From NCBI GenBank assembly GCA_008632985.1, contig QPGO01000020.1, forward strand, positions 372,001-436,000: a DNA stretch of 64,000 nt, written 5' to 3'. The translations under genes and the position numbers were made by a program. Source of the stretch: Psammoneis japonica (taxonomy: Eukaryota). Under the pieces are notes generated by a model. It searched no databases and had not been told where the DNA came from. It was given only the letters and a program-made list of their open reading frames with translations. Positions within the stretch are counted from its first letter, which is position 1, and each line of letters opens with the position of its first letter. Below are positions 4,401 to 64,000 of the stretch, piece by piece.

Positions 4401-4554
4401 ACCACGCAACACAGCAATGCTGTTGCGCTCTTGTTGTCCAGCAACAGGTTTTGGTGTTGCATCAATGATGGGGCAGTGTCATCATGGCCATGCTGTTCAT
4501 CCTTGGTGACATTGTCAGAGAGCAGCAGTGGCAAAAGTGCCACGACAAGCACAA

Positions 4555-22405: not shown

Positions 22406-22639
22406 GATGTTGGCTCCGCAGAAGTGTTACTTACGCAGTCAGTGATTTGCCTGTGTTTTGTTACGACGGATGTCTACACGCTGAGATTAATGCAAGATTA
22501 GAGTAAGAGTTAGAGGAACTCCCTTTACTCATTAGACAAGCTTGCTCTAAGTGATGGAGCAAAGTGAAGACCGGCTCCTCTCTAGAGGGGCTACGAGTAC
22601 CTCTCTAGCTAGCGAGAGATTTTCTTCCGATACTTTTTT

Positions 22640-30865: not shown

Positions 30866-31819
30866 GGTAGAGTGATTGTATCTCATGGTTTGTTGGTACA
30901 TCGTGGATGTGATTGATTTTGAAAGCATCGTGAATTTGTGTGGTCTTTCGAGCGCTGAGATTTTGGCGTTGCAAGCAAGGTTTGTGTGACTGCGGATTTA
31001 TCGTAGAAACGTACGAGGGTGTCGTACCACAATCTTCTTATCAAAATGTCCGATCGCCAAAAATAATATATTGTTTAACCAAAACTGTATAAAGCATTCG
31101 AAAACCAATCCAAAAAAAAGAAACCGATGAAAATTGTGATCACCCCGTGCCTCATAAGTCGCCTCTCTAGTCTCTAGCCGACGGTAGCTACAGTACTGTA
31201 GAGCGGGTCTCTCTAGTGACAGAGGAGGTTAGCGCCACCTCTGATTAATAACATCGAAAGGATCTCGATGCGTCTTGGAAAGCTGACATTTGTCCTTCAT
31301 TTTAGTCCATCGTAAACTGCTTCAAAATCATTCAAGAGAACTTTGGTTTTACGTAGCTACGTGTACAGTAGGACCCTACTATTCTTATGGCTGCCCAACT
31401 CGCTTTCATGCACCAACTAACTGGATTATTAAAGTACCGCTAAATGAACCACCAGTGCAGACTACGGGCTCCCTCGATCGAAGCGAGTCCGGCTCTGACT
31501 ATTGCTCCCGCAACAAGCCTTTATGCACTTGCCTTTAGCCTGACGGCACGGAACAAGTCGCCGTCATACAGAATGAACTGTGCATTTCATTTCCATCCCT
31601 CTCTCTTTGGGCCACTAGTAGGCAACATATAGTTCGTGGCATCTTCCTCCTTAATTTCGGTTCCCTTCTTATTCGCCTCGCTCGTTCGCTAACTAGATAG
31701 GACTATGGAGTGGCTTATAAGCAAAAATTGCGAGTTCTAAATTGAGAAAGCTCTGCTTATAGACTACCCTACGCCATTCAGAGATAGAGTTCGCGTAAAT
31801 CTCGTCATCCAGCGGGTAC

Positions 31820-39151: not shown

Positions 39152-39347
39152 CGTCAGCCTGCTCATCCACATGTCGCACGATGGACAGACTGGGTGCGGA
39201 TGATGGCTGGGCCATTTAGATGGACGAGCAGATCTCTCTGAGATCTGCTTCTCACTTTCTCATCTACCAGCACTCGTGTCATCACAGTCCTGGCACTTTA
39301 GGGAGTCTTTCACACCTCCATCATCATTGACCTTTGGCATTCTGTCA
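39152..39347 (+). repeat. 5' LTR (196 bp)
   Basis: Direct repeat of 46421-46616 with 17 substitutions and no indels; ends in ..TGTCA. Confidence 0.95.
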
Positions 39348-39357
39348 GGTTGTGGCC
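39348..39357 (+). promoter_or_regulatory. Primer-binding site (copia-type, tRNA-iMet fragment)
   Basis: GGTTGTGGCC directly after the 5' LTR resembles the copia-type PBS GGTTATGGGCC, with TA changed to TG. Confidence 0.65.
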
Positions 39358-39527
39358 TTGCGCTGTGCCACAGACCTCTGCACCAAGCTTTCCGTTTTGA
39401 TTCATTTGTTTTGTGAGCTGATCGAGCAAGCCTCATCTCTTGTTCCCGGAAGGATTTTTATCTTGCTTTCCCGGCATTTTTCACGACCATAGAAACATGC
39501 CAGATTTCCACGTGTGCATGACCAAAA

Positions 39528-41486
39528 ATGGCTCCACCAACTAAAACCATGGCGTCTTCCGACCCCACAAAGCCTGCTCTTCCGTCCATTGCAGAGATCT
39601 GCCACGAATTCGAGGCACATGCAACGACACCACATCTGCACAATTGCCTGGGTGCGATTTGTGCGGACTCCGTGACTGATCTTGACCCTTTTTTTGATGA
39701 CCCAGAGCATGCGCAACCCAAGAAAGATTTCACGGACATGCTCCGTGATTGCTTCATCCACGAAGCGTTTCCACCCCACACAGCTGATCCTGCAGATGTA
39801 CAATCAATCAAGACGATCATGGATCAAGCCCCGCTCCGACTTGTTGACTCTCAAAGAATTCGTCCAGTCTGTTTGACGACTCCGATCTCATCAAAGCTGA
39901 TCAAGACGAATCTCCTGAACAATGAGCAATCTCTGTTTGTTCTCATCTCCACCCAACACACATGTGTTGATCCGGACATGACATGGAACTGTCGCAATTG
40001 GAACGGATTCTCTCTTGCACCCTGCCAGAAGAAACAGCAACCTCCATCTTCTTCTCAGAAAACTGCAGGACCTGCTACATTGACTGTGGGTGACTTGGTC
40101 AATGCACTCAATGCATGCACGTCGAGCCACGCTCCGCCTTCTGCAGCTTCTGCCAAGACATCTGGAAGCACTGCATCTTCCGTAACATCGAAGCACCTCT
40201 TCAATCCGAACACACCACCTCCAGATGTTCGTGCATGCTACGACCGCAAAGAAGACGGAAAAGTCACTCTTCAGAGCTCTCTCGTCCCTCACGACCATGG
40301 ATTCCGTCACTGTGTTGATGCATCCGATCGCATCATCCTTGACGATGGTGCCCTTTTCATCATGAGCTCGACTCCTGACCAGAAAATGTTGTTCAGGGAA
40401 CCTCCTGCATGTCATGACGATTCTCCCCCTGGGACACGAGCATGGCACCAAAATTTCCAACATCATGCCTTTGATTCAGGACACCACACACATCCACTGT
40501 GGTGTTTTGCCAAGGACCACGGTGGTGAGAAGGGTTTCGAGATCGGAAACGGCAAGGATGATGACTTGCCTCGACGCATGCACATCCACTGCAAGGAAGC
40601 TCAGAGCTCTCTCCACAAAATCCTGTCCAAGTCAGATGTGTTCCCCAAGAACAGCAAACATCATCGGATTGTTGCATCATGCTGCGGCAACGGATGCAAG
40701 GCTCTCAAGCAGATTGTCTGCGAGAATCATCCTGCTTTCGACCACGATGCTGCTGGACTGGTTGATTCCTGTCCCATCCAAGGCAACCGATCATTGACGG
40801 ACCACCACATGATCTTCAATGATTTCCTGCAGCTGCGTGCCTGCATTTTTGATGCAGACTCTATGTTGAATGATCCACGGGAGATGACCATCTTTGTCAA
40901 GAATGCCAAGCACTCCAAGTTCTTATCTCGTGCCACCAGAGATGAACGGAAGTCTCCAGCTGTGCAGAAGAAGTGCGCGGATGCACAGATTGTCGAGACT
41001 CTCTCTGATTTCCTCCGCCAACCGGATGGTCCATCCCTTGCCACTCATGCAACGCAATCCAACCCCTGCCGCACATGGAATCAAGCAGCTGCTGACACGC
41101 GTGCTGATGCGCGACGCACACCTGTCAATGTCAACGCTCTCCAGATCCCTGAGATGCCCCTTCATGAACCAGTTGACGACTCTCCCGCTGAAGACACTGG
41201 TGTGGAGTCTCCACCTCCAGATGCCTTTGACACTTTTTGCAACGAATTGCACGAACTCGAGCTCCCTTCTACGGATGAAGATCCACTTCTTCACCATGCA
41301 CACTCGGCTTCAGTTTATAAACTGAAAGTCACTCCAAATGAAGCCTCCAAGAAACCATGTCTTGTCTGCTCCAGAGAGCATTCATTTGATGACTGTCCGG
41401 TCCTGAAGAACAACCCGTACATCAAGGGATTCCACATCCGTTTTTTGTCAATTCTTAAAGCGGGAAGCAGCTGTGCATGCTTCTGA
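39528..41486 (+). pseudogene. Copia gag-like ORF
   Basis: 652-aa ORF after the PBS ending with a zinc knuckle CLVCSREHSFDDC; only 3 Tyr. Confidence 0.8.
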
Positions 41487-41594
41487 GTTCCAAGGACCCC
41501 AAGGGTTGCTCCCACCCCATCATGAAAACCCTGAAAATCCACCTCAGTCCAGTGCTCCGCCCTCGGATTTTCAATTGGGCCGCTGCAGCTAGTT

Positions 41595-44500
41595 TTGGAT
41601 CTCCGACGCTGCCCGTTGTCTCCTCACCAAGACAAGACTAATGTCAGCGGGATGACCTTGAAAGAGGGACCAACCGTCTCGTCATCCACTGCTGAAATGC
41701 CTCTTTCCTCACAGATTGATGTGGACACCACCCCTTCCACCTCCACGAAGATGTCATTTGACACTGGCAAGTTGCCAGATGATGACCCTGCTCCTCAAGA
41801 AGCCACCGTCGATGATGCTCATGCTCTGGACCCTTTGGAACAGGGGAGGGAAGACCCAGAAACACCGGATTTTGAGGAATGTGTTGACCTCACCTACAAT
41901 GATGTGGCCATTGAAGACGGTTTTGCTGCCATCAATTCTGTTCGTGTTGCTCCAATCGATCCATGCCAAGCAAGTCACTCTCCTGAGCCGGAACTGCTGC
42001 GCTCCACTTGTTCTGTCAATGGGGTAAATTTTGCTCTGAATGAACGTTGTGCTCAGTTGGATGCTGGTGCTGACATTGCGTGTGCAGGTGACCGTGACCT
42101 CCTCCACCGGTGCCAAGACTTCACTCCGTCCCATCCCTGTCCCCTTGCCATCAATCCGGCCCTTGGCCACCAAGCTGTCCCAGTTGGATTCGGGCATCTT
42201 CGCATCCCTGCAGAGAACTCTGACGGCCATGTTGAGGTCCGTGCATGCTGCCACCCACAGATCCAATCTACGTTGGTCGATGAGCGACTCCTCCTTTGTC
42301 AAAATGGTTCTCGTTGTGCAGATTGCAATGTAGATTGCATCCTCAAGTTCCATGATCTCGGTGCCTGCAAGTTTGTTGCATGACACCGATTGCGCAAGAA
42401 TCAGGACATCATCATCCATGGGAAATTGATCAATGGCAAATGCTTTGCTCACCCTCTCATCCTCCCGGAATCTAACGATGAATTGGATGCATCTGTTGAG
42501 CGCCTCAAGACCAGCGACCCTTCCTTTGCCGATGAGTGTGAAGCAGTCTCTGCACACATGATTGAAACATGTTGCACCCACCAACATGATGCTCTTCGTG
42601 CTGAATGCAAGTTGATCCCCAGTGTGTGTCAGGACATTCCTTTTGAAAAGCATGCAGAGAAGAACATTCCTGTGCAATCTCTCAAGGCCGACACGGAATG
42701 CCTTTTGTGGCATCAGCAACTTGATCATCCGAGTGATCACTGCCTTTGTCATGCCCATGAACACGTTGACGGCATCCCCAAGTTTGCCCACGGAACTTCT
42801 CCTCTCGACACTTGTCCTGCATGCATGCGAGCAAAGCAGACGAAGGAACCTGCCGGTCCAAACACTGCTCTTGCTGCCACCCAACCACACCAAGGCCTCA
42901 CGGTTGATTTTTCTTTCTCTGGCCTGTGGTCCAAGAACTCGGAGCGCACCAAAGACTGTGTTGGGTTGAATGGCGAGACTTGTTGGATCACTGTCTACGA
43001 TCATAAAATGAAGTGTCTCCATGGTGCGACCCGGGTCTCCAAGGCAACCCCTCTGAATTGGCTTTGCCACTTTCTGGAAGAGCACTCGCCAAAATGTCCA
43101 GACAAACATGCATTTGTGGATCAAGGAGGTGAATTGCATCAAAACCCAGAAGTTCGGCGACTTTTCGAGGATGACTTTCATCATGCAATTCATCCTGCGG
43201 GAAAAGATGCTTCAAATCAGAGTGGCCCAGTGGAACGCAGTCATTTGAGTGTTGCCAATGCCATCCGGGCCATGCCAATCGGTGCCGATTTGCCCACAAA
43301 ATTCTGGCCCTGTGCTTTTCATCATTTCATTCGAATCAACAACGCTGCACCATCCCGCGGACAAACTGCTGCTCCGATTGCTCTTGCTGTTGCTCTTGCT
43401 GCTGGTCGGAAGGATGATTTCAAGAACTTTCGCATGTTTGGTTGTCCAGTGTGGGCACGTGCGTCGAATCACCGCCCAGCAAAATTTCGGTCTGTCTCTC
43501 GCAAGGGTGCATTCTCAGGCTGTCTTCCGGACACTGCCAAGAACATGCTTTGGTGTGACACTGAGACATTGCATGTCAAGCTTGCCAAGCACATCCGATG
43601 TGATGAGGGCATGAATGATCTGCCCCACGACTCTCTTCCACCGAATGTGGTTCACTTGGAACGTGCTCAAGATGGCAAGGCTTTGCCCGCCAAGACTGAA
43701 GAATCTACGATGGACAAGCTCCACTTTCATGGGAATCCTTTTGCCAAGACCATTGCATGTGCAATGAAGGGGCCATTTGCTGATCCGACGTTTGGACTTT
43801 CCTTGGCTACGGATGATCTCTGTTGGCGAGTGTTTGTCTCTGATGTCAAGTGTGGTTCTCCTGCTGCGCATCTTTTCTCTTCTTTGAAGGCCAACCGCAA
43901 CAAGATCAAGGGTGCGTGTGTTGCATCGATCGATGATCATCCCATCTTCACGGCAGAGGAGGCTGTCAAACGTTTTCAACAAGTCTGTGATTCAGGCAAG
44001 ACTCACTTTGAAATCGAATTCGTGCCGGAACGTCGACTGGACTCCCAGGCTCTACAACGTGCTCTGATGGAACATGATGTCTGTGCACCAACTCCTGACC
44101 CTGATGATGAGCATGTCCCAGAAATTGCCGCTGCTGACATGCGTGCCATTGCTGCCATTCGTCACCCTGACATTGATTTTTCTGACATGGATGATGATGA
44201 CGTCCCTCTGCCGATCTGTGTCGACTGCGACAATGGTGTGGTCAACATTTGCACTGTTTCATCTCACGCGATTGCTCCGGAGGAACAAGCGTTGGGTGCT
44301 TTCACACGCCATCATCTCAAGAAATTGGACACCTGGCCCGAATGGCATGCGGGTGAATTCAAACAACTTGACCAATTTCATGAGTTGGGGATGTTTGGTG
44401 CACAATTAAACGTCCGAAGGATGCCACAGTCCTTCATCTGCATTGGCAATGTGATCTCAAACATGATGGTGCGCGACGATCTCGACAATGCTGCGATGGA

Positions 44501-46020
44501 TCTCCACGTGCTGCATCGATTCTCCACCGTCTTCACTCGACCCACTCCTCTTGTGTGGAGCAACCCATCCAACGCATGTTTTTTGCCCTTGCTGTGACTG
44601 TGAGCTGCCCTGCATTTGGCGGTGATGCTCGTGATGCACATGCACACTCCCCGCGACCATCACACCCCGTCTGTGTTGCCATCGACGAAGCATGCGCGAC
44701 TTGGTGCAAGGCTCGGTTTGGCATTGATTTGGACAGGACTGTGGCACTTCCGATGCAACATGCACTTCAGGGACACCCAGAAGCCGGTGTGCTCTGGGAG
44801 ACGCACATCACGGCATTTCATCCAATGTGAATCTACTTTTTTGCAATGCCACTCATGACAAATGCATCCATTCTGCTGCTTTTGAGGGACACAAGATCTT
44901 GCTCCTCCGTCAGGTTGATGACTTCTCCCTTCCGTGTCCTGAAGAGTCCCTTGCGATCAAGATGTGTGACAAGATTGGCGAAGCTCTTCAATTGGAGTTG
45001 GAAACTTCTCCGCCTTTCAAGTGTCTTGGTGTGATTGAAGAGTTCAATGGTGTGGACATTCATCAACATGATGATTCCATTGGTGTTGCTGTTCACAGCT
45101 GTGTTGATCGGGTTTGTGCTTCGCATGGATGGTCGACACTGACAGACGAAGAACTCGACGATGACTGCAAGGCTGCACCAATTCCGGTTGACTCCATTCA
45201 TGAACTGCACACTGCTGTTGGTCCAGCTGAAGGAACCCCGGAACATGCGGAGTTGCAACAGGCTGCTGGTTTTGGACACCGCACCCTCCTTGGTGAATTG
45301 TTGCACGCGCATGTTGTCTGTCGATTGGACACTGGCTGTGCTGTCACTGCTCTCTCCAAGTTCTCACCTGTCCTGCTTTGGTTCACTGTGATGCACTCAA
45401 GGGAGCATGCAAGCACCTTCGATGCACCAAGCATTGGGAATTGAGTTGCAAGAAGCCCACCTGAGACTCAAGACCACCCGCCTGCCCCTTCGACCGTCTC
45501 ACTCTGGACCCGACCCCACCTTCGTTCCCTTTCCCGGAATGTGATCATCAACTTGTTGCTTTTTTGGATGCTGCACATGGTGATGACCTCCGCAACCGTC
45601 GCTCTACGACTGGCTGTGCTTGCATGTCAGCTGGCGCTGCGACATCCTTTCGATGCAAGACCCAATCGGCGACTGCTGCGAGTTCTGCGGAAGCTGAATT
45701 CCACGCTGCTGGCACTGCTGCTGGCTGCCAAGCATGTCCTTCACCTTCGTCACATCCTACATGACCCAGGCTTCCCTCAGATGAAGGCACCCCGCCATGC
45801 ATTGACAACGAATTGGCGATCAAGATCATCAATCACTCGATCCTGACTGAGCAATCCCGTCATGTTGAGATCCAGTTTTTTGCGATCCAAGAATGGAAGG
45901 AAGCAGGCAAGATTGTCACAAGACATGTTCCTGGCATTGTCAACCCTGGGATGACCTCACCAAGGCCCTTGGCTGGGTGCCACACGCTCGCCACGCTCGA
46001 TGCATGATGGGACACTGCTG
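41595..46020 (+). pseudogene. Copia pol (protease, integrase, RT, RNase H), disrupted
   Basis: Protease QLDAGA; GAG-pre-integrase LWHQQLDHPS..CPAC; integrase VDQGGEL, QSGPVERSH, FWPCAFHH; RT ALQGHPEAG..W, LLRQVDDF; RNase H DAAH..RRSTTG, SSAEAEF, RHVEIQFFAIQEW. Contains stops and frameshifts. Confidence 0.9.
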
Positions 46021-46056
46021 TTGACATTTTTTTTCGCGGTGGCATGGACACTTGTC

Positions 46057-46317
46057 GGCCTGTTCCAGCTCCAGGTGCTCCGCGCGGGTTCGATTCCCAT
46101 CATTTGGAAAATTTGTGCATTCGGCGCAATTGACTTTTTCCAAATCCGTTTTTTGCCAAATCGAAGGGTGAGTGTACACTTTGCATGCATTTTCGGGTGT
46201 ACACTCACCTTTCGATTTTCGAAACGATCAAAATTGAAGGAGTTAATTGCGCTAAACTGCGCAGAAAATCGGCCTCTCGCGTGATGAAAAGCAGAGCACC
46301 TGGAGCTGGAACAGGCC
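46057..46317. mobile_element. Foldback MITE (261 bp) inserted in the copia 3' region
   Basis: Perfect 24-bp TIR GGCCTGTTCCAGCTCCAGGTGCTC (46057-46080 and 46294-46317), nested internal inverted repeats, flanks TGTC and CATC. Confidence 0.85.
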
Positions 46318-46411
46318 CATCGTGTCCCATGTCTGGTCTCTCTGTTTCCCCACATCATCCCTGTTCTTTGGTTTGATCTGTCCCATTTTCTATGTTGGGA
46401 CATTGCAGATC

Positions 46412-46420
46412 AGGGGAGGG
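46412..46420 (+). promoter_or_regulatory. Polypurine tract
   Basis: AGGGGAGGG immediately before the 3' LTR start TGTCAG. Confidence 0.85.
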
Positions 46421-46616
46421 TGTCAGCCCACTCATCTGCATGTCGCATGATGGACAGACTGGATGCGGATGATGGCTGGACCATTTGGATGGACGAGCAG
46501 ATCTCTCTGAGATCTGCTTCTCACTTTCTCATCTGCTGGCACTCGTGTCATCACAGTCCTGGCACTTTGGGGAGTCTTTCACACCTCTGTCATTATTGAC
46601 CTTCGGCATTCTGTCA
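46421..46616 (+). repeat. 3' LTR (196 bp)
   Basis: TG...CA termini; direct repeat of 39152-39347; followed by the TSD TGACA. Confidence 0.95.
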
Positions 46617-48850
46617 TGACAAGGTGCAGTCTGCACCATTTGCTGAGGTGCCAGTGGAAAAAAAGAGCTGGGATTGACACGTTGGCGCAGCTTCACAAAG
46701 CATGCCACAAAAATGCCACCGTGCAGTGCCTATGTCACAGCCATCGTTTCCACCAAAGAGTTTGTTGGCAGCTCTTGAGTCCATGCACAACAAGCTTGTC
46801 TCAGCTGGGGCATCTCCTGTGCACATTTTTGATGGGGCAAGGCATCCAATGAAGAGCGCAGAAAAGGGCCACTCGAAACAACAAGATGGTGAAAGCAGAG
46901 TCATGGCTGGATGAGTGCACAAAGAAAGGCAAAGCAGGTGATGTGATTCTGAGGTTGACCAACACCAACCATTGCAAAGAGCAAGAGATTTGTCCAATCC
47001 TTTGCCTGACATTGTTGCTCATGTGGTCAAAGAATGGATGGCTTGCAATGGAGTCCAACGTGAATGCGCTCTGCATGAGGCCTAGCAGCACCAACTCATC
47101 AAAATGGAGGCAGACAATCGTGCTGATGGTGTCATGATGAAGGACAGTGATGCCGTCATTCTGGGAGCTGAGGTTGTTTGTTTGAAGGTTGGCATGAGGT
47201 GCGGCACATGAAAACACACATGCATGCACTGCTTGCCCTCCAAAAATCTGCCAGGGCCAGAGCACAAGAATTTGCTTGAGCTGAGGCTTGATCCTGATTT
47301 GAGCATGCTGTCTGCAGTTTTTGAATCATGTTGAACTGGGTGCAAGACTCAGAATGGTGCCCCGGAGAGGTGGATGCCAAGACGATCTGCACAGCTCCCT
47401 CATGGCCACAGTGATTGTTGCAGGCTGGTGACGGGCCTGGATCAAGGTGGGACCCAACAGTCCCAACCGCTCTGACAACGCCAACCCTCTCACAACTTTT
47501 GACATGTTCCCCTCCACACCAGTCATTTCCTGGCTCCAAAAAGCTCCAGGGTAACTCGCAAATGCACACCAGGGCAACCTCGCCCCAAAGAGAGGATGGA
47601 AGGGGTTCCCGTTGACACAGATTGTCAAACACACAAAAATCACACTCAAAAGCCACCATCAGATGATCTCTGGTGCATGCCCAAACAAACTTGTTTTTGT
47701 CTTGGGGCTTGCAATGCCAAGTGTTGTCCTCCACCCCAGCTCCATCCTCCACAAGGTCAGAGTCATTGCAGCTTGATTGCTTGTCCCAGGTGAAACAATG
47801 TGCTTTCTTTCAAAGCACAGCAGCCTGGACACCACACTTGCCAGCATGCCGGCCAAACCCCAACACTGTGAACAAAATTTGTGCAGAAGATCCCTTTCGT
47901 CCAAATGAGGGTCCTTCCACAGCACTCGGCACAAGGAACGGTCCATTGCACACATTTTTGGGGCACCTCAGAGCTGCCAAGGGCTGTGAGCAAAAAAGTG
48001 AAACAGAGGCCGACCAGCAAAGGTTTGCACATGTCTTCTGGCCACAAGGTTCCGCCCCCTGAGTGGCATTGAGAACATGAGATCCGCAGCCTTGCAGAGC
48101 TGCTTCTGCCATTCAGGGGTCATCAGTCAAGGGCAAATGAGAAAATGTGGAAGGATTTCTGCACCTCTGTCCTGGCAACCCTGAGCTCCTCCAATGCCGC
48201 GCATGCTGCGGCTGGTGGTGGGGCCCACACCCAACTCCCAGATTTGAACCAAGGCATCTCTGCAGCTTTGCAGGCTGGACAATCCCAGCCGGCAATGTCA
48301 CGCCCCTTTTGAAACCATTCAAACGGGGTCAGTGGCTCCGGAGCAGGAAAACCCACCCAGGACCACACCCAATCAAAAAGTGCTGGAGTCCGGGAAGTGA
48401 CTCACAAGTGAGGTGGAACAAAAGACAACATTTTTGCTCCACTCATGACACCTTCTGACAGCCCTCCTTGGGACACTGCACGTCCGTCCCTTGAGCAATC
48501 ATCCAAAACCCACAGACATGAACCAGGTGAAAGATGAAGCCAAACTTTGCTTCCAGCACCCAAAGGCGAATGACCTGCTCGAGGAGCATGGGGCCAAACA
48601 AAGTGCCTTTGTGGGCAGCCAACTTGGACATCAAGTTGTCAGTGAAAAAGCAAAGCTTGGCTCCCATGTGCTTGCCTCCTGCTTCTCTGAATTCTTCAAC
48701 AGTGTCCACAGTGTTTGAGAGCTCCTTCCAGTTTGAGGAGTTTTCCAAGTCATCCTCACCCCACACACTGATGCAACAGATGATGGTGTTGTCCTGGGTT
48801 TCAAGCAAGGCACCCAAATCCTTTCCGGAGGCATCACTGAAAAAAGGCCA

Positions 48851-49249
48851 GATGCGCTCCAGCTCTGGGTGGGACCTCGCACCACTGCACTGTGACATCA
48901 GAGTTTTTTGGATCGCATCGCATGTCGCGCGCGCACATTTCTGCGTGTGACATTCTACAAAATTGTTTCATGCTCCCCATTTTGCGAAGCCAAAGGCTTT
49001 TTGTTTTCAACATTTGTGAGAATGAAAATGCACTGGGCACATTCTACAATGTCTGTAGAATGTGCCCGGGCAAACTGTCAATTGTGCACACTTCAAGTGT
49101 GAAGGAGGAGATGCGTTCCCAAGATTGCCTCTTTTTCTGTTGGCGATCATTTGTGTTTTTGTTGCCTGACAAATTTGCTGCGGAGCTTGCACGTAGAATT
49201 CTGTAGGCCCAATGTCACACGGAGTCCCACTGGGACTGGAGCCCCCATC
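48851..49249 (+). mobile_element. 399-bp MITE, copy A
   Basis: 4-bp TSD GCCA (48847-48850 and 49250-49253); imperfect TIRs; inverted homolog of 49595-49993. Confidence 0.8.
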
Positions 49250-49594
49250 GCCACCACAATCTTTGACGAGCGGACAACAACAGATGTCGGGACATCGGGT
49301 TCAAGCATTCAGGCCATTGTGCGGAGGTCCAAAAGCAAGCAAGGAACCCCCGAACCTTGGAAGGAGGGCACAGGCCCATCAGCCCCTCTGCTGGTTCCAC
49401 AGGGTCGACTCCCCATTTTTCCGAGATGCGGTGAATCCAACTGGAAAACTCCTTGGCAGACATTGCCCATCCATCCTCCTTCCAATTTGGGTGCCAAAAA
49501 TCCAACGTGAGGTGTGTCCCCTTCAAGAATGGGGCAAGGAAGCCACGTGTCATTGCGAGATGAACAAGAAAGCCTTGTTTTTGCTCCAAATCCT

Positions 49595-49993
49595 GACGGT
49601 TCCAGTCCTCTAGCAGGTGGGACTCGTGACATTGGGCCCGCAGAATTCTGCGTGCGAGCTCTGCAGTAAATTTGTTAAGCAATGAAAATGTGAATGATCA
49701 CCAACAGAAAAAGAGGCAATTTTACGAACGCATCTCCTCCTTCACACTTGCAGCACATCATCAACAGTTTGCCCGGGTGTGTTCTACAGACATTAAAGAA
49801 TGTGCCCAGAGCATTTTCATTCTCACAAATGATGAAAATAGAAAGCCTTTGGCTTCGCAAAATGGGGAGCATGAAACAATTTCGTAGAATATCACACGTA
49901 GAAATCTACGTGCGCGACATGCCACGCGATCCAAAAAACTCTTGATGTCACAGTGCAGCAGTCACGAGGTCCCACCCAGAGCTGGAACGCGTC
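49595..49993 (-). mobile_element. 399-bp MITE, copy B
   Basis: TIR GACG(C)GTTCCAG and 4-bp TSD TCCT (49591-49594 and 49994-49997). Excision restores the host reading frame DHKDLEQKQGFLVH. Confidence 0.87.
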
Positions 49994-52900
49994 TCCTTGT
50001 GGTCAAAGAAGGGGAGGCAATCCTCAGAGAAGCCATCACACACCTTGAGCAAAGCAAAAATGACAGTCTTTGCCTTGTCCCACTTTGCCTGCACCACAGT
50101 TTGGGCTGCATCTCCATCGGTGACTTGGAGCACAGCTCTGGCCCATGCACCCATCTCAGCCTGAGAAGGGGGTCTGACTTTTCCACCCGCATTCTCTGCA
50201 GACCCAAGTGCTGAAGCCTTGTGTCATTTGGTGAGCCACTTGCCAGGCCAGTTCCTTGCTGGCCCCATCCCCACAGGTTGTCTGCAAAGGTTTTGATGTC
50301 ACCCGCTGCAACTTGCAGATGCGAGCTCCACTTCATGACCAGCGGTTTGTTCACCTGACAGTTTGGGTCTCCAGGTGAGTTGCACAAAACCTTGTTGAAC
50401 CCCGTGGGATTTGATTTTTGAAGAGGGTCTCCACGGGCTGCTTTGTCTGCCCAGCAGCAGGACCAAACAGCAAGGCAGGGGCTGGGATGCATTCCCACAA
50501 AGAGGTGGGGGTCCAGCACTCCCAACCCATGAAGCCACCCTTGTGGTCTGAGGCCAGAGAGGAAGATGCTCCCTGAGAGGAGCCAAGTCCACTCCAGCAT
50601 GAGGGAGGATCTTGGGATCCATGAAAAAATTTAGGAACATGTCTCCCAGGTCAAGATCAACAGAAAAAGCACGTGCCGTCATGCACTCCAACGCCAAGGC
50701 CAGAGCAGGTAAAAAGAATGAAGGGGCCCAAAGTGCATCATTGAGCCCTGGCGAGGTGCCATTTTAAGCCACGCGAACATCTTTGACAACCTCAACAAGC
50801 TTGCCCTCCCATGGCTCAAGACGGGCTGTCTTGGGGACCCAGAAGCAATCAGCAAGGCTCTCCACTCACCCTTGATGAATGCACTGATGCTGCCAGATTT
50901 TCTGGAGCTTCTCCACCATGCATTGGATTTTGAAGGGAGTTCCGCAAATTTGTTGATGACGGTGGTGACAAGGGAGAGGCCCCTTTGCAAAAATGGGAGC
51001 ACCATCCCAAGCTGCACATCTTTGCTCCTCCACAAGCCAATGCCAAAACAAGAACAAGGGCCCACTGTCCCAAGCCCACCAAGAGCTGTCATGAATCTGG
51101 GCAAAAACTTTGGCCCCAAGAGAAGCATTCAAGAGAATCAATGGGGGAGAAGAGGGTCGTGGCACACACACACACACCTGTGGACATGCCCTTGAGTGTC
51201 CCAATGATGCCTGCACTGCATGGCCAGGGAAAAAACCCACAAGTGTCCACAGGTGTGGCATGAGCAACTCAAAAATGCCATGTGGTGCAACGATGCCACC
51301 AACCCATGGCCAGAGTGCAAAGCCAAGGCAAGGCAGGCGCAAGAGAGGGGAAAAGCAAGGCAACCCACTTGTCCCACAGCCAAAAAGGAGGGGCTGCCTT
51401 GTCATCCTTTGCTGCCTTGGCCGCAATGAGAGAGACATCAATCCACGAGTGTGGGAGATGGCGAAGCAAACCCGGGAGCCAGGCACCCGAGGGCCATCGC
51501 TCCATGTCCACCACCGTGTTTGGCACATCCCTCAGCAGCAACGGTCAAGAGGCCTGCCCAGAGGAGGCAATGCATGACTCCACCGGGACAGTTGGCAGGT
51601 TGAGCAGAGTGAGCCTTGCACTGTTCTGCACAACCCCAATGGCATCCAACATGCCAGAGCCATCTGGAACCAGAGAGGGAGATCCCGCAGCAAGCAGTTC
51701 AACCAGAGAGAGTGAGCGGGACACCCACCCTGCAGTGGATCTGAAAGACACTGATGCACCACAGGATGGGATAAAGATCCTGGATGAACCAGGTCTGCTT
51801 TGCCGCATGAGGATCCAACCAAGTCCCAAGAGACTGAGAGACCTGTCAGCTTGCAGTCAATGACATGACCAACAGTTCTGCACAACCCAACCCTCAAAAG
51901 GAGGGGTGGGAGTGTGTTTCCAAAACACAGTTGTGCAGAAAGGCGTGACTCCACCCAGACCAAAATGGGACACAGCATGGTGTGGCATGTGTTCAAGACT
52001 TCACAGATTCTGGTGCATTGTGCCTCTCACCAGGATCACAAAAGAAGGAGCAGCCGGGAGAAGATGTGCCACTGACTCCAGAAACCATGGAGGACCTGAA
52101 GCCAACACCAGATCATCCCAAGAGCTGGTGTGACCAACAGAGGTCCAAGCAATGTGGCAAAATGCCACTGGTTGGGACTCAAAGGCCTCGGCAATGGGAG
52201 CCACCAAGGCATCTCCCTCTGCATCATCATTGGACAAGCACACAGTCAGCCACTCAGTGGGGTACAATGCAAGGAGCCAAACCGGGGGGCGGAGGCTGCA
52301 ATGAGACAAGATCCTTTGAACGCAAAGGGTTTGTGGCCACAAACGACATGCCTGGGGTTGGGAGGGCTGTCAGCCAGAACTTCATCATCAGAAGCCCACC
52401 CAGCAGATTTCTCCAGCCCCCGTGCCCCTCTCACCTTTTGTTTTCAAGCGCCTTGAGCCACTTGGCAACATCCTTCAGCTTTTTCGTGTGCAACTTGTTG
52501 ATCTCAACGTGAGCCGAGTCCCCCTCAGCTTGTGCTGACTTGGCCTTGGAGCTTGCATTCTTTGCCTTGCCCGCACAAGTCTCAACAGTCATTTGAAGAG
52601 TGTGGTCACCACCTTGAAGCCTGAATTCAAAGCCAAGAATTTAATGCACTGACATGCCATGGATGGGTGGTCCGTGAACCCAGCCCCTGCATGCTCAGCC
52701 ATGATGTCCTGGGAACAAAATGCTGCCCACAGCAGAATCTTGCCACACACTGCATCCGGGTCAGCCCCAGAGATTGATGTGAGTGCGCCGGATCTCACCT
52801 TCTGGATGTCCTCAATGACAAAACGACGTCATCTTGGCTCGGAGGCACCCTCCTCCAAGTTGAATCAATCCAGAAGTCACAGTTGTTGGGCGGTCGTGCC

Positions 52901-53492
52901 ATCGGCAGGTCGTCTCCATCTATTCTAAAAACTAGTAGAGAGGGTACGAGGAGTCCAACGGCAGCCCGTACGACAAAAAATACAGACGCAGAGAACTTGA
53001 AACTGCCGCCGAGCGAGGATTATTTACAGTACAATGACCAAGTTGCTGCACAGTAGAAGAAATGTGTATACTTTTAGTTATTTGATGTTTTCATATTTGA
53101 TGTTTCAGTTGCTCTCTGCTTGAATCGCCGCTGCTGGCACCTACCGTACGGTAGAGGTAGTCGCATCCTACTCTACTCACTCTCTACCGCTGCTAGCTAG
53201 AGACGAGAGGTGTCAGGGTGCAGTGGAGCGTGGATTTCCTTACGAAATCTTGAAAACGGAATCATGATACCCCCTGCAAATACAAAATTGAATCATCTCT
53301 ATCGATATAACGGGATGGAATACTCGCTTCGCCACGTTTGCAAATGAACGAGAAAGGCAAGCGACATGCGGTACAATGCAACAGTTGGTCCCGAAGCACT
53401 GAAAGCAGGATGGGCGGCAAGTTGAAACAACTCATCAAAGAATGATACTATAAACTACAAACTGAAAAACCAACTACACACAAAATGTTGAC

Positions 53493-55177: not shown

Positions 55178-57340
55178 GTTTGTATCTCAATGATTATACA
55201 ATGGGAAAGCAAAAATCGTGTGCTTTGTGAGAGAGCGTGAGCGTGTTGATTTTCTTGTTGCTCTTGTTTGTGTTGTGTCTGGTTCTCGCGACTTGGCGTC
55301 GTGGGTTGAAAAAATGCCAGTGTGCGCGAAAAGCATTCCCTCTCGTAGCTTCACGTACATTTTGTACCTGAAAGAACCGAATGATACTCCGACGATTTCA
55401 GTCGTATTGAATTTTTAAGTTCTACAGAAGTTTACTCGGAATTTATTTAACGGAATCTTATTTGAAACGATATAGGCTTACATAATATATTCACTCACAT
55501 ATACTGATTATACGCATTTTTCACGTTGTTCGTTGATTAGACGTTATATTTCAGTCATGCAAGTGATTCCCGCGCATCCAAAAAAAGATCCAACCGAATT
55601 GCGTTCCCTGCACGAATCAATCATCAAACAACGATTCACAATGCGCACCGTTTCCTGTCGCGTGTGTGTTATCTCTGATGTGAATATGCTCTATCCACCA
55701 TGCGAGGTTTTTTTGAATGGGATCGAACTAAAAGCAACATGCTCTAAAGACCGCCAACCACCTAGCCAGTTCTCAATGACACTGCGGGCGGAGTTGCGGC
55801 GAATTTTGACAAGCAACAAGCTCATGACGGCGGTGACCACGTACAGTACCACGGACCTCAAATGCAATGGCTGAACCAAGAGTTGAAATTGAAATGCTGC
55901 GTAAAAGGCAAGAGGATTGGTTGAAACGAGAAATCAAGACGACACAACACTGTTGCCTCCGCGATCCAACGACTCGGTATGTTGCTAGGTATGATATGCC
56001 GGACCAAGACTAGTAGTTTCTTTGGATTGTCAATGATCGTGTTTGGATTTTGAGTTGCAATGTTAATACGGATTGCGACCAGGAGGGGTCTCTATTAAGT
56101 GTTGGGGTTGGTGCTTTAGATCCGTCTGTGGATCGATTCCAAACGGCCCCGGCCGCATGTTGTTGGCTATTTGACACGCCCCGCAGCTTTTCGAGGGGTT
56201 TGTCACCAAGGAACTGCTTCGGAATGATTGTTGGAGGACTCTGGTCTAGTAGGTCTCGGTGCTGGATTTCGGACGTTGCGTATGCGCCAAAACTCTGTGA
56301 AGCTGTCGGACAGAAAAGCTCCTCAACTGCGACAGAAGATTTCATCGATTATTCAATGTAAATGGTTGCGATGTGGCCACCGATGCCCTGAGTGCCGTCC
56401 GATTGCAGTGTAGAAACGCATTTCTTGTGATGTGATGTTGCAAGTTTTCAAGACGAAGCTTTGAAAAGACACTGCGACACGTTCTAGAGAAGTCATCCGA
56501 GGGAGGCACGAATGATGCACAACGAGGCAAGATATGTCTACTGTTTGTTAGAGCGACAGGGCGCGAAGGATCGAACCGGCGACAGTTTCTCTTTCTGTCT
56601 ACATTTGCATGAATAGCTCTTGTGATGGAACAAGGGCCCGTGCAGTGGTCGTGGACTTGGGATGATTCGACAGATAGAGGAACCACGACCTGAGTGGAAG
56701 ATCTTACGCAATCATGTTACTCATAAAAATAGCATACCACCATCGAGAAAGTGAGTTTATGCTGGTAACTTGGAAGCGACCTTCCGTGTTCCTTGCTACT
56801 CGAAGACTAACGTCTTCTCACCTTCGTCTTTATTCTACCCTTGCAGATAAAAATACATGAGAGTTTCTGTCCCTTTCAAAATTGCAGGTACTTTCGCGAT
56901 TGGCTAACAGCTCAGATACGCGCTAAAGAACTTGTAGCAGAAAGCTTTAAGCTCGAGAAAAATGACAACAACCAGAGACACATAATGCACCACGTCGTTC
57001 TGACTTCTCCTGGCGGCAGAGAGCAGAGTAACCGGCGGCATAGACAAGAGATTGCTTTCTGTTTTCTAAGTTTCGATATTCGTCGACAGTTCAGTGTTTC
57101 CGCGAAAAGCGACAAATACCCTTCTCGATTGATGTGATCCAAGGTTCTTTGATTTGTAAGAGACTTTGAACAGCGTTCATTCTCTTCCTCGAAGCTATTC
57201 ACCCGCAAGCTCCTCTTGCTCGTCATTGTGATCCAAATGCACAGGACTCAATAGAACGCCGTTGATCATGTCTTATACTTCTTAATATTTGTAGTACTAG
57301 TTCTACGTGACCTAGACAATTCCATTTCGGATGCCGGTAG

Positions 57341-57942
57341 CTACTTGATCATCGTCTTGATCAATTCAATCAAAGCATGAAGTGAGTCTCCATCAGGGGG
57401 CTCCCAACGGTTAGTATCAATCCAGTGCTGGACTCCCGGGTGGTCGGGATTCTTCTTCGCGAACTTACGCATCTTGTTTCGGGTTCCAGAACAGCCTCCA
57501 CGACCGTCTTGCTGGCGTTTATAGAAGTTCTCTTCCGGCTCCAATTTATCCATGTACCTGATAATTGCATCGATGCTTTTTGGCATAGGATCAGGAGCGG
57601 CAAATAAGTACGCTGTTCCTCCAACTCCTCCTCCTCTATGATATTCTCAATCTTCACTTTTTGCTTCTTCATGGGATTGATGTTGGGGTTATCAACTTTG
57701 GAATTCTTTCGTTTCGAGCTTGGCCATCGCAAACGACCAGACTTTTCCTCTTCGGCAAGATCAAACCAGAGTTCATCACCATCATCAAACTCAACAAAAT
57801 GTTGAACACTCTCATTTCCACCCTTCGACTCAGAAATGTCCATTTTTGTGATGATCCCTGTGTAAAAGGCTTGGTTGCCATCCTCTTCAACAAAGAGAAT
57901 GGAGACCTTGCGGTTGAGGACAGTATCCTTGTACACCGCCAT
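57341..57942 (-). CDS. Small protein with a Tudor-like domain; frameshift near 57600
   Basis: LNRKVSILF..FYTGIIT..HFVEFDDGDELWFDL is a Tudor-like pattern; continues into ORF 57341-57586. Confidence 0.55.
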
Positions 57943-58229
57943 GTTGGAGAGGAGCTAGAGGTATAGGCTCAACAATACCCGAGAAACTTAATCGCAAGGC
58001 TTAGCGAGTTCGTGGCGTTACAGAAGACGAAAGACGACAGAGAGATAAAAAGAATAAAGATACTGCGGCGGGGTGTTGCGCTTTTTTGGGCGATGTCGAG
58101 TAAAACGAATGTTGACACAAAACGTGAAACGGTTCCCGCCACCGCGCGCGCCCGCCGGCAGTCATCATTGCGTCATCATTCGTTTTGTAGGCCCCCATGT
58201 CACGGCACATCGGATCTGACCTTTACATT

Positions 58230-61200
58230 GTTGAGGCTGGTTCAGGATGCATCCAGCCATCGAAACTGGAGACAATGTCATGACCATGGTTCAGGTGGAT
58301 GGTGTGTGCCCCTCACAATGATGCTTTTGGAGCAACTGTGGCGGCAGGCACCAGCGTCATTTTGGAAATGTTGTGGTGTTGCCACAGTGTGTGTGAGCGC
58401 ATTGCAAGGAATCTTTGTGTGCTCCAGCTGCCTTTGAGATTTTGACAACAAGTGGCCCAAATGTCCAAGTTGTCATCTGAGGAGAAGGAAACAAAACAAC
58501 AGAGGAGTTTCATTTTGCCAGCAATGATCCCTTCGCCAAGACTCTCAAGTGCGCAATTCGATGGCCCACGTCAGATTTGGCACGTGGCATCATGATGACT
58601 TTCAAGGCCAGTGAGCTGTTCAATGCTCCATTTTGGATGTCAAGTGCAGCAGTTCTGCAGCTTGCCCACTTGGAACAAGATCATGGGCACATGTGTTGCT
58701 TCGATTGTGTGATGCTGATGCTCCTTTTTTGAAATCGTTTTCATGCTGTGGAGAGCCATCTTGACTCCAAACAACTCCAACAGGCTCCAATGGAGCATGG
58801 TGTGTTCTCTTCACCCCCAGAGAAGGATGTGAAGAACATGTCCCCAAAATCACAACAGCAGACATGCACACTGTTGTGGCTTTGCATTTTCCTGACACAT
58901 TGATTTTTCCATGTTGGGCAACATGGATCCTGAATTTTCACCGACAATCAACTTTTTGCCCATCAACGCAGGACATGCAACATGAATTTTGCACTTTGTG
59001 AAGGGAAGTCAGTGCCAACCAGCCACTTTTTCATCTGTGATTGCAGGGAAAGACAACGGCAGTGCAAACATTTGACACTGGTGCGGTGGATTGGTGGTTG
59101 AACGCTGGTGTTTGCCAAAAAGAAAGTGCTGGATCAAGGTGAGGGGCACCCACCCATGATGCTTGTTGTCAGGTGCAGCCCAGCCACCTGCTCAACCATC
59201 GTTGCACTTTGGCAGCAAAGAGCCCCAGGCAATGCTCCTCAAGACTGTGTCACATGTCCACTTGGAGCTGGCTCTCCAGCTCAGCAGACATCTGATGATG
59301 GCTTGTTCCATGATGATGTGCTTCTCATCATGGAGGAGGAGTTTGACCTGCAATCATCATCTCACTCTTGCTCATCCTTGTCCTGCCAAGACAACAGTGA
59401 TGGCAGCACTGTTTGTGACAATGATGGCATGTGCTGCTTTGATCTGCTTGACATTTGGAGGAGTGATCAAGATGGAAGAAGCCCAACTTTTGAGACCTTC
59501 ATGCCTTTGGGAAACAAATTCCCCACCAAAACAAGCTTTGTCTCATGGAGGAAGAGTTGGTGGTCATGATGAAGAAGTGCTGCCCATCCCATGGCTTGTG
59601 CAAGGCTTTTCTTTCTTGGGCTGCACATGCCAAGGAGAGTGACCATGAGCACAAATCTTTGTCCTGCTCCACTGCCTTGCAGTGCATGAATGCTGAGCAT
59701 GCTGACTTTGTTGGGCCAGAGCCCATCTGCTCCACTGTGCATGCAGGGCTCAAGTTTTCCCAAGCACATGCCTGTGGTTTTTCCTCTGCACATTTTGTGT
59801 GAAGGGGGTTTGCAATTCCCTCCAAAGTTGGATGAAACCATCACAGGCCTTCTGTCCAGCCATTTTGGCATTTGCCACTCAGCAACTGCCCACTCCAGAG
59901 CACTTGCCAGTGCAAAAGATGGCACCACCCCTGCCTCCATCATGCCAATTTTCAAAACAAAGTTTGCTCCAAAATTGCCATTTGGAGCACAATTTCCAGC
60001 TGTTGCAAAGAATGGATGGCTGCTCATGCTCTTTGCCAAGACATGGGCAAGTTGCAGGTTGAAGCTGCTTTGTCTGAATTTGTCATGGTGAAAAATGAAG
60101 TTAATTTTCAGCTGGAGCAGCACCTGCAAAGTTGGATGAAACCATCACAGGCCCTGTGTCCAGCCATTTTGGTGTTTGCCACTCAGCAACTGCTTGTTCT
60201 GGAGCACTTGCCAGTGCAAAAGATGGCACCACCCCTGCCTCCACAGTGCTAATTTTTAAAATGAAGTTTGCTCCAAAATTGCCATTTGGGGCACAAAATC
60301 ACTTTGCAGCCACAACTGCTCCTCCACACAAACACCCATGTCATGTGCTGCTGACACCATTGCTGTGAGCCCTCTCTGTGCTGTTCTTTGCTGGGGGGGC
60401 ACCATCATGAATGGAAAACAGCAGATGAGCTGCCACCAAAAAGAACCAAACTCTCTGCTGCCTGCCTGTGCCAGGAGCAGCCAGCGCACTTCTTGGCAAA
60501 GTGTTTTTGAGTGGGTGACAGGCTGCCCAGCTGCAAAAGCAGCCAGCAAGGGCCAGCAACCAGCAGCAGGAGTGCCAGACAGACAACATGTTTCCATGCT
60601 TGACCAGAGTGTCACTTGTCAACAATTGAAATTTTCACATTTGTGCTGATCATTTCCACACATCTTCAATTTGCACGGATGTCAATTTTGTTTCTTGGTG
60701 GGGTTTTCAAGTCACAAACAATTAAGTCCTTTTTGCTTTTGTTTTGAGTTGTTGCCTGTGTGGCTCATTTTTGCACATTTTGAACTTGCCAAGAACAGCT
60801 TCATTTTTTTTCCCTCCATTCTCTGCTTTTGAGTTGCCTGTGTGGCTCATGCAAGTGTTTTCTCTGCATGCTGGAGTTTGCTGGTTCAATTTGTCATGGC
60901 ATGTTTCACCTCCTTGAGAGGTTGTGGCGCGCAGCTCCCAACCACAGTTGGCCATCAACAGCACTGGACTGTGCCACTCTGTCAAATTGCTCTTTGACAA
61001 AGCCACTCCCATTGTTGCAGCAATGATTTCCAGTGCTTGGAGCCCGGCAGAGAGAGCTGCCTGTGCACTCACCAAGCCCTGGATCAAATCAACTTTTGTG
61101 GTTAAATGGAGCTGACTGTGCTCATTGACTCTTGTCATTGCTCATGTTCAACATCCTTCTGTGCGGCAGATGCTTCCCAGAATGTTGCAAAGCACCCAAT

Positions 61201-64000
61201 CTGCATTGTTGACAAACTGCACATTGTTCCATGCATGCTGCAAAATGACAAACATGGGTGTCCAACAGAAGGAGGGTTCCGGCCAGCCATCATCATTTGC
61301 CTGTCACTGGCAGCATTTTCTGCAGTTTGACCTCAATTTTAGAAGCATTGACCACTTGAAAATGCCTCTTTGAAGACAAAGTGAACAATTTAAGCTGTGC
61401 TGCAATTCATTTGGTTGGAGCTGGCACATTCACTGGATCCAGGGTCCAACTGCTTGTAGCTCCTCAGGAACTTGCATGGATTTCTGACACCTGTTGAGAA
61501 CCGCCCAGGATCCTCTCATTTGGTCACAGAGCAGGAGGTGTTTGAGCTGTTGGTTGAAACTTTTGGATGATCTGACAACACAGACATTGAGTTGATTTGA
61601 TCATTGCAAATGATCATGACAAGCAAGGATTTCATCCACAGATCTTCAACACACACAGTTGTTAATTTTGTCTTTTTTGCTTGTTTTGGGCCACCTGTGT
61701 GGCTCATTGTGTTCACATTTTAAAAACTTGTTAAGAGCAGCTTCATTTGCTTTCCATTTGTTAGATCTCTGCCTTTGTTTGAGTTGCCTGTGTGGCTCAC
61801 ACGAGTGTATTTCTGTGTGCTGCAGTTTGCTGGTTCAATCTGTTGTTGTGAAGGGAGGCGAGCTTGGCGACATGTTTCTGAAAGGCACTCGAGCAAGCTT
61901 CACACAATGTGTCAGTTGACAAAACTCTTGAGACACAGTGTTTTTGCTTTGGTTGTTGTGTGAGAGAGCTTTGCATGCAAAGTCATTGCAGGGACAATCA
62001 GTCAGGAGATCATGGTTGAAGTGCTGACATGTTGTGTCCTCTTTTCCAGGTCTGCCAGGAGGAGAGCTGTGCAGTGACAGTGATGTGGAAAATGACCAAG
62101 GCAAGTGTGAAAAGGTTGCTCATTGTTGTAGAATTTTTCACAATGCAAAGCATGCTGACAGGCATTGCTTGTTTCATTTGGCACAGGCATGGTGTCGTTT
62201 GGCTCGGCAGAAGGATTGATCACTTTCTTGCACTTTTGAGCATGAGATCCTCACTTGTGAGATCACCAGAATTTCTTGGATGCAATGTGAGCTCTTTTGG
62301 CTGGCTTTTTTGTCTCACACACAGCATGGACAATTGTCGCAGGCCTGGGCAGTGCAGTCAAAATTAAGGCCACCACTTCAATGCCGGAAGACTGGTCTCC
62401 AGACACTGGATTTTATGGGGAGCAGCAGTCAAGGTAAATGTTGGTGAGAAGGGATGCAATGCAGGTCAGTTTGTTCATGCTCATCAGCTTCTTTGACTTC
62501 TCTGCTGTGCCGGCGACTCTCCTCACAGTGCTTGGACCTTCAAAGCACACACTTTTTGGAGACTTCACAGTGGAAGGGGGTCCAACGGCTGCACTGCAGA
62601 TTCTCTTGTTGGGCAGGTTGGTCACAGCAGACAATTCGCAAGACAGGAGACAACTCCCAGTTGCAGCTGGCCATTGAAATCACCAGCCCATGCCACTTTG
62701 TGACACTGCTCTTTGACAAAGCCATTCTCATCATTGCAGTGATGATTTCCAGTGCTTGGAGCCCAGCAGAGAGAGCTGCCTGCACACTCACCAAGTCCTG
62801 GATCAAACCCACCTTTCATGGTTAAATGGCACCAACTGCGCTTGTTGATTCTTGTCATTGCTCACATTCAATGTCCTTCCATGCAGCAGATGCTTCCTGG
62901 ACCATTGCACAGTGTTCAATCTACATTGTCAACACACTGTGCATTGGTCCATGCATGCAAAACAATGAAAACGGGTGTCTGACAGAAGGGTTCCGGCCAG
63001 CTGTCATCATCCAATTGTTGCTGGCAGCATTTTCTGCAGTTTGACCCCAATCTCAGAGCATTGACCACTTGAAAATGCCTCTTTGCAGACAACGTGACAA
63101 TTTGAGCCATGCTCCAAATCGATTTTGTTGGAGCTGGTGTGTTCACAGGATCCAATCAACTGCCCAGGACAGTCTCCTCAAGTCACAGAGGGTGGTGTTC
63201 AAGCCATTGGTTGAAACTTTTGGATGGATTGACACAGACTTTGAGGCAATTTGATTGCCACAGATGATCATGGCAGGCAAGGATTGCCGTGCTTGCTTCT
63301 GTTTTTGGATTTAAACTTGCCAAAGGCATGGTCTTTGCATCTCATGAAGTGAGCAAGAATGGCACTGCTGCTTGGAAAGCCGTTGCCGGAAGACAGAGAC
63401 TGGGAAGATTGTTTCATCTTCTTCCCTCTGTCACCATTGCTGCAAATGAAGACAATGGCCAGAGTTCATCAGCCACACATTCTCAGTTCCCAGGGGCTCA
63501 CTCTGGTGTTGAGTTTGATGACATGTCTTGGTGTCTCCAATTGGAGAAACAGGCTTGCTGGGTGGATGGTGCACAACGCACAGGCCAGCACCACTTGAGA
63601 AAACAAAATGGAGCATGTGGTGGTGTCCCCATGTCCTCCCAGCAAATGTTTGCCAAATGCCAAGCCAGATCATCAACACCACCACAAATGCACATTGGTT
63701 TGAGTTGCTGCCTGCATGACATGCACCACCCCAGTTGCACTCAGTCTGCATTTGTTGATTGTTGAGTGGGTTTGCCCAATTATGAAGCATTTGCACTCTT
63801 GATTTGGGAAGCTGCAAGCCTTGTCTTGGGCAGCAGCAGCCCCTCATGTGATTCCTCCACAAACAAGAAAAGATGCCCAGCTGCACAAGGTGTGCAAGCA
63901 TCAGGCCCACAGATGTGGCAAAGGAGGTGTGCAGTTGTCTTGGGATGGCATTGGAGGACTCCAGTGGTGGGTTGCCAGGGACATGTCAACAACCATGGTT
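58230..64000. mobile_element. Degenerate repeat domain 4, TpA- and CpG-depleted, with internal duplications; runs off the window end
   Basis: TA and CG nearly absent. Duplications: 59826-59990 with 60130-60295; 60735-60900 with 61680-61850; 60935-61630 with 62650-63285. Confidence 0.7.

Follow-up and report, generated by a model that had tools for sequence, protein, structure and literature searches.

TpA-depleted domains and their remaining TA

The stretch of DNA analyzed here (the window) comprises 64,000 nucleotides, positions 372,001–436,000 of contig QPGO01000020.1 from a 91-Mb eukaryotic assembly, and contains four domains depleted of the dinucleotide TpA, the loss of which follows a code of flanking bases. 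The domains were called by a hidden Markov model using TA density alone and lie at positions 2154–7516 (13 TA; observed/expected ratio (o/e) 0.04), 22632–30867 (38 TA; o/e 0.07), 38788–52920 (66 TA; o/e 0.08) and 58225–64000 (21 TA; o/e 0.05). TA o/e is thus 0.04–0.08 within the domains versus 0.56–0.67 outside, and CA and TG are raised within. CG is only half depleted in the third domain (o/e 0.50). The fourth, which consists of decayed repeats and contains multi-copy pieces, is depleted of both TpA and CpG (CG o/e 0.14) and extends another 5,246 bases past the window end. All of the depleted stretches searched are multi-copy, and gene-bearing stretches keep a TA o/e of ~0.6. Much of the DNA examined is affected by TpA loss, which amounts to ~90% of TA.

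The original prediction held that the few TA left in depleted DNA mostly have a 5´ T or a 3´ A, and that TTAA in particular is spared. The survivors that it named are present, with TA at 60102, 60250, 60257, 60723, 61103 and 62823 and, in the first domain, at 2378, 5571 and 6630. Between 58230 and 64000, 17 of the 21 remaining TA have a 5´ T or a 3´ A (expected 35%, p = 2e-5), and TTAA accounts for 11 of the 21 against 4.0% expected (binomial p = 1e-10).

Survival of TpA by flanking word

Survival was measured as the share of TA among TA, CA, TG and CG for each flank word, expressed as the ratio of inside to outside with the strands pooled; 150 bases were trimmed off segment edges, and fetched segments shorter than 1 kb were left out. 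A further 200 kb were fetched from elsewhere in the same genome, and the pooled set comprises 117,069 bases inside depleted DNA and 220,230 outside. The NTAN words are not depleted equally, either in the window (χ2 164, df 9) or in the fetched 200 kb (χ2 308, df 9). NCGN depletion is flat in the fetched DNA (χ2 7.8, p = 0.55), and in the window gives a χ2 of 32 with a 2-fold spread. Overall relative TA survival in the pooled set is 0.099. TTAA survives best (0.64), followed by CTAA/TTAG (0.28), CTAG (0.12), GTAA/TTAC (0.11), ATAA/TTAT (0.087), CTAC/GTAG (0.080), ATAG/CTAT (0.046) and GTAC (0.033), with ATAC/GTAT and ATAT at the bottom (0.010 each). TTAA makes up 110 of 474 TA inside versus 367 of 8733 outside.

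The sparing is concentrated in TTTAAA. When the retrotransposon domain of the window is left out, TTTAAA has a relative survival of 1.8 (27 inside, 38 outside). The value for TTAA is 0.89 if a single side is an A-tract and 0.26 if neither is, and that for RTAY is 0.016. The proposed target of roughly VTAB captured the existence of context specificity, but as a rule it is broken by CTAG (0.118) and CTAC/GTAG (0.080), which are VTAB words and survive like ATAA/TTAT; in young copies they even exceed it (0.25 and 0.18, respectively, versus 0.10). A main axis on which RTAY is fast and YTAR is slow, with further terms at the ±2 positions (TTTAAA) and for an adjacent CpG, fits better than VTAB.

Loss of TpA in repeat copies

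The third domain contains a long terminal repeat retrotransposon-like element (39150–46616, plus strand), which matches to GAG-pre-integrase and retroviral SH3 suggest to be Copia-like; it has lost TA and mostly retained CG. It is among the 18 copies of one of the two retrotransposon families used for per-site rates, the other having 9 copies. In these families TA loss is 3.3–7.3 times faster than CG loss, only 7 of the 164 columns with TA also show CG, and the copies have reached TG or CA independently. No TA-rich copy of either family was present among the 40 loci examined.

Such copies do exist for a dispersed repeat in the fourth domain. One depleted copy (60849–61631, plus strand) shares 77% identity with the TA-rich copy L009, and copy comparison identifies a second depleted copy at 62654–63307 (plus strand). 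At 630 TA aligned between one TA-rich relative and depleted copies, the depleted copies show TG 271 times, CA 226 times and TA 29 times. The lightly hit copy L040 differs from L039 at 14 positions, 12 of which are TA versus TG or CA. Polarized by an outgroup, 9 of these 12 are TA losses in L040 and the other 3 are not, and 16 of 17 are TA losses in another copy, L047. Once inserted, repeat copies lose TpA on either strand, one site at a time and through transitions alone, which yield TpG or CpA. Gene conversion from depleted copies is rejected, as the lightly hit copies carry nearly only TA changes. These copies suggest recent activity, as does position 52263, where a run X1 contig has CA in place of TA. 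Around 20 TA-rich copies of the repeat elsewhere in the genome (L036–L055) have escaped TpA loss, some of them adjoining depleted DNA, and the TA-rich copy in L009 is flanked by a 199-base direct repeat (1–199 and 3487–3684; 99.5%). An 8.5-kb domain on another contig (G000:C5, ~235,550–244,100; L034–L035) shows TpA loss without CpG loss (TA o/e 0.15, CG o/e 1.02). CpG decay at ACGC/GCGT is direction-biased, with C>T on the ACGC strand in 75–76% of cases in families A and B.

Per-site survival at former TA columns in the two retrotransposon families agrees with the genome survivors. With sites of variable flanks left out, and with copy-sites that are not fully independent, the numbers kept are 48/181 for TTAA, 46/188 for CTAG, 79/352 for CTAA/TTAG, 183/1004 for CTAC/GTAG, 84/734 for GTAA/TTAC, 70/692 for ATAA/TTAT, 37/625 for GTAC, 18/739 for ATAG/CTAT, 8/806 for ATAC/GTAT and 1/428 for ATAT. 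TTAA is thus slowed without being immune, given that 133 of the 181 copy-sites in young copies have been lost. In the repeat of 60849–61631, TTAA was kept at 19 of 78 sites that were formerly TA, versus 9 of 373 for every other word together. Gain also contributes to the TTAA enrichment, because TTTAAA is commoner per kb inside depleted DNA than outside, and because 14 of the 22 TA that old copies carry where no TA-rich copy has one are in TTAA.

TTTAAG at 61389–61394 (plus strand) is a true survivor, its TA (61391) being present in 20 of 20 TA-rich copies; among depleted relatives TTTAAG is commonest (7), followed by TTTGAG (4) and TTCAAG (2). The GTTAAA at 61101–61106, which is shared with 62821–62826 (plus strand), had been taken as a TA kept in both paralogs within ggttaaatgg. 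The site exists but is a less clean survivor than 61391: since 18 of 19 TA-rich copies read CTTCAA, GTTAAA, which is found in 6 depleted relatives, is a subfamily-specific state in a slow hexamer. The 174-nt direct repeat at 59819–59992 and 60123–60296 (span 59819–60296, plus strand; 89% identity) has TA at 60250 and 60257 in its second copy and CA at both sites in its first, and TTTAAA can therefore differ between copies, in a direction not polarized by an outgroup.

A strand-resolved flank code

The strand that was hit can be read from the outcome, because an A>G change leaves TG if it occurs on the plus strand and CA if it occurs on the minus strand. Log rates were fitted per strand among similar copies grouped together, with conditioning on ascertainment; the fit used 958 units at 500 sites and 100 bootstraps by site. 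Flanks are written as N-N-T-A*-N-N, where A* is the A turned to G. Relative to A, the +1 terms are 1.44 for C, 1.53 for T and 0.15 for G, and the -1 terms are -0.80 for C, -0.40 for G and -1.10 for T. A +2 base other than A adds 0.7–0.9, and T at -2 contributes -1.03. A directly adjacent CpG lowers the rate on either side (TACG -1.00 [-1.47, -0.55]; CGTA -1.13 [-1.54, -0.81]). On its own strand, a +1 pyrimidine accelerates the change ~4-fold and a -1 A 1.5–3-fold, and a +2 A, a -2 T or an adjacent CpG each slows it 2–3-fold on both strands. The strand-specific part at +1 is 0.74 [0.48, 1.07] for C and 0.43 [0.19, 0.64] for T; the ±2 terms are nearly symmetric between strands, with +2T as the sole small asymmetry (-0.31). 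TTTAAA comes out as the slowest word in the model, and ATAT-centered words are fastest. Fitted on copies, the model predicts hexamer survival in the depleted domains with a Spearman coefficient of -0.84 (n = 104), a set that includes one training copy (~7 of 117 kb).

The asymmetry is also visible without the model. In tight copy groups A>G falls on the TAY strand in 550 of 880 and 77 of 117 cases in the two orientations, and symmetric words split evenly between strands (350:354 and 78:77). In the family of the 60849–61631 repeat, the TAY strand received 160 of 210 changes, with 22 of 30 sites above half and 4 below, and four close copy pairs give 24 of 36. Codon selection is rejected as the source of the asymmetry, which flips with orientation and holds both in tight copy groups and in the second kind of repeat. 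CpG protects only a TA that it directly adjoins. Next to a CG column, TA is kept at 240/883 where the copy retains CG versus 80/512 where CG has decayed, although copy age is a possible confounder.

Mutational patterns and artefacts excluded

Private A>G changes outside TA occur at AA (48/9650), CA (69/12321) and GA (60/10127) alike, at a background of 5–6 per 1000 copy-sites, and 7369 of 8219 former TA copy-sites have been lost. Since A>G at AA, CA and GA is equally at background, the process is restricted to TpA and lacks both a WA and a YA pattern; AA>AG is no higher than GA>GG, which rejects WA mutagenesis of the Pol eta type. A RIP-like change is likewise rejected, since CA and TG are gained and, of all C>T classes, CA>TA occurs least often (20/11863). 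Neighboring hits have the same direction in 2379 cases versus 2350 expected, which means no strand runs, and the sense bias of 0.04 [-0.09, 0.13] amounts to none. These two results argue against a processive single-strand pass and against editing of retroelement RNA by ADAR before reverse transcription; the slowness of +1 G, similar to that of +1 A, also contradicts the UAG preference expected of the latter. Base-calling artefact is excluded by the independent TG and CA outcomes among copies and by a run X1 contig that matches 55728–59927 with 8 other letters, although this run may be the assembly's own sample and is not independent of the strain. In contigs of run X1, TA at 52263 appears as CA, and CA at both 59213 and 59842 appears as TG; these may come from the other allele, resolved independently. 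Private A>G outside TA rises before pyrimidines in families A and B (AT 63/7445, AC 36/5300, AG 46/8972 and AA 32/10381; 8.5, 6.8, 5.1 and 3.1 per 1000), which may be ordinary background or an extension of the TpA activity beyond its target.

Interpretation of the flank code

From the observed flank code we infer a chemistry, an enzyme and a mode of targeting: a putative distributive deamination of adenine at TpA, acting on silenced repeats, in which the 3´ base would be sensed on the strand being edited and the duplex would govern access. We give this reading about an even chance. A zinc-dependent adenine deaminase of the TadA/ADAT/ADAR fold would be brought to silenced repeats and would turn the A of TpA into hypoxanthine, to be read as G at replication. 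It would be strict about the 5´ T and lax about the 3´ base, and local duplex properties, namely A-tracts and probably methylated CpG, would limit its access. Many separate hits over generations would erase TpA, and slow words would remain or be re-created and persist.

Several points weigh against this deamination. The deaminase genes found in the genome look like ordinary housekeeping genes, none of them is tied to the process, and a chromatin-reading domain was not seen in the frames read of these genes. The specificity is stricter than that of YA editors, with no excess at CA, and TAG and TACG are slow here, unlike the natural preferences of ADAR for UAG and of TadA for ACG. The flank effect is largely common to both strands, and a single-strand deaminase would need an added access step. 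The attacked base cannot be named from sequence, because an A>G change in TAY is, on the opposite strand, a T>C change in RTA. The expectation that the footprint could separate a deaminase from polymerase error thus held in part: it rejects the WA pattern of Pol eta but does not tell adenine deamination from thymine-side chemistry.

An attack on thymine is accordingly the first rival, although an unlikely one. Here, an enzyme that reads the duplex at the palindromic TpA and prefers R-T*-A would modify T, whether by oxidation, alkylation or amination, with the result that the base either pairs with G or turns into C; amination would formally reverse RIP at this dinucleotide. The strict two-base palindromic target and the flank effects acting on both strands resemble DNA methyltransferase-type recognition. 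To our knowledge, no converter of T to C in DNA has been described. The genome holds 27 DNA_methylase matches at ~15 places on several contigs, three of them on contig C297, and diatoms encode the RID-related DNMT4 (PMC9998398). In that survey, however, DNMT4 is not found outside diatoms, yet Bigelowiella has the same TpA process. The genome search gave no Tet_JBP match, which weighs little, as the controls were blank too and absence is thus not shown.

Error-prone DNA synthesis in silenced repeats, with sequence-dependent incorporation of G opposite T, is improbable. The ±2 flank effects and the action on both strands are compatible with a polymerase, and background A>G away from TA is likewise higher ahead of a pyrimidine. 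However, AA, CA and GA are hit equally, so that no WA pattern appears, transversion-type outcomes (TC, TT, AA or GA) make up no more than 67 of the 5130 seen at former TA columns of family A, there are no same-strand runs such as a repair patch would leave, and 12 of the 14 L040–L039 differences lie at TA.

A two-step process, in which the TpA adenine in repeats is first marked, for example by N6-methylation, and the marked base is then deaminated, is slightly less probable still. It would explain the strict duplex recognition of TpA and the transition-only outcome, in parallel to CpG methylation and decay in the same domains. Against it, the own-strand rate terms of TAC and TAT are alike (1.44 versus 1.53), and N6-methyladenine in protists is known from ApT. 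Least credible is the proposal that composition, fresh creation of TTAA or selection, rather than slower loss, produces the TTAA enrichment: the old-copy-only TA and the TTTAAA density favor it, but per-site survival at prior TA sites (48/181 for TTAA against 1/428 for ATAT, and likewise in the dispersed repeat) refutes it as sole cause, and the context effect persists when only groups of near-identical copies are considered.

Returning to adenine deamination, we tentatively suggest, with some doubt, a wider proposal: a natural editor of TpA in double-stranded chromosomal DNA (A:T>G:C) that is steered to silenced repeats, senses CpG methylation and A-tract shape, and represents a genome-defence class that lacks a characterized member and is common to distant algal lineages. 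If it exists, an A:T>G:C editor of this kind, occurring in nature and confined strictly to TA, would be a novelty in genome defence and would interest the base-editing field. The value of the finding is that the question of the enzyme becomes testable, since candidates can be accepted or rejected by the spectrum (TAY over TAR, TTTAAA slowest, protection by adjacent CpG, no activity at CA or AA).

Candidate enzymes and other genes

The genome contains an ADAT2-like gene (L148/L153), a TadA-like gene (L146) and two genes of the ADAR/ADAT1 fold (L151 and L152), all of which are candidates for an activity on DNA. The latter two are separate ADAR/ADAT1-fold deaminase genes within one genome. An EndoV match is also present, and a Pur_DNA_glyco search of the genome was blank, by which absence is not shown. 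At L147:19–1491 (minus strand; G000:C79), one open frame joins zinc deaminase, DIOX_N and 2OG-FeII oxygenase domains, possibly for nucleobase salvage.

In the window itself, positions 145–753 hold a MutS III/V fragment of an MSH-type gene, possibly broken, with normal TA content, and positions 16516–21452 hold long reading frames rich in IQ calmodulin-binding motifs. A run X2 contig lacks 96 bases at 56750–56847, which have GT..AG ends like a spliced intron.

Comparison with known systems

The repeat-induced point mutation (RIP) of ascomycetes resembles the present process in its confinement to repeats and its dinucleotide-specific transitions. It changes C to T in CpA/TpG and creates TpA (PMC12543289), in contrast to the process here, which destroys TpA.

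In the A:T mutagenesis of Pol eta, A>G at TA is part of a WA pattern. The loss described here differs in having no AA component, almost no transversions and no strand runs. The WA motif of Pol eta is named in a reference title within PMC11507097.

Among adenine deaminases, ADAR prefers UAG and TadA prefers ACG (PMC10661471). Amphioxus ADAT2/3, a tRNA deaminase occurring in nature, acts on A in DNA as well, with a preference for GAA and TCG (PMC10354150). Neither preference is seen here: TA is the target, A at +1 gives the lowest rate, and the loss of CG does not favor TCG. The flank code speaks against Pol eta, the known ADAT2 DNA motif and the editing of RNA ahead of reverse transcription. 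Engineered TadA editors are closer: TadA8e off-targets are A>G at TA genome-wide (PMC13225742), and ABE8e-YA follows the order YAY > YAR (PMC12528748), so that ABE8e and ABE8e-YA share with the present process the preference for a 5´ T and for a 3´ pyrimidine over a purine. Their YA motif includes CA, however, whereas CA>CG is at background here, and the passages on these editors do not mention the slowing by A-tracts and CpG that is found here on both strands.

The closest system is the TpA hypermutation of integrated nucleocytoplasmic large DNA virus (NCLDV) and virophage DNA in Bigelowiella natans (Mettrop et al., bioRxiv 10.64898/2026.01.13.699255), which is ongoing, with 230 TpA mutations in the lines studied and a 1000-fold raised rate per generation in some of them, and for which an adenine deaminase (ADAT2) was proposed without a test. 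Both processes make A>G/T>C changes only, act on TpA only, affect foreign or repeated DNA (some repeat copies here being still TA-rich) and leave TpA-poor clusters rich in CpA and TpG. The process here differs in affecting a large share of the examined DNA, with ~90% loss. The main text of that preprint contains no flank analysis, and the literature covered, which mostly lay outside subscription journals, gave no such analysis and no diatom report of a TpA process. The TpA process itself has thus been described once, in Bigelowiella; the strand-resolved flank code with its hexamer and CpG terms is the addition, and it allows a direct comparison with the Bigelowiella mutation list.

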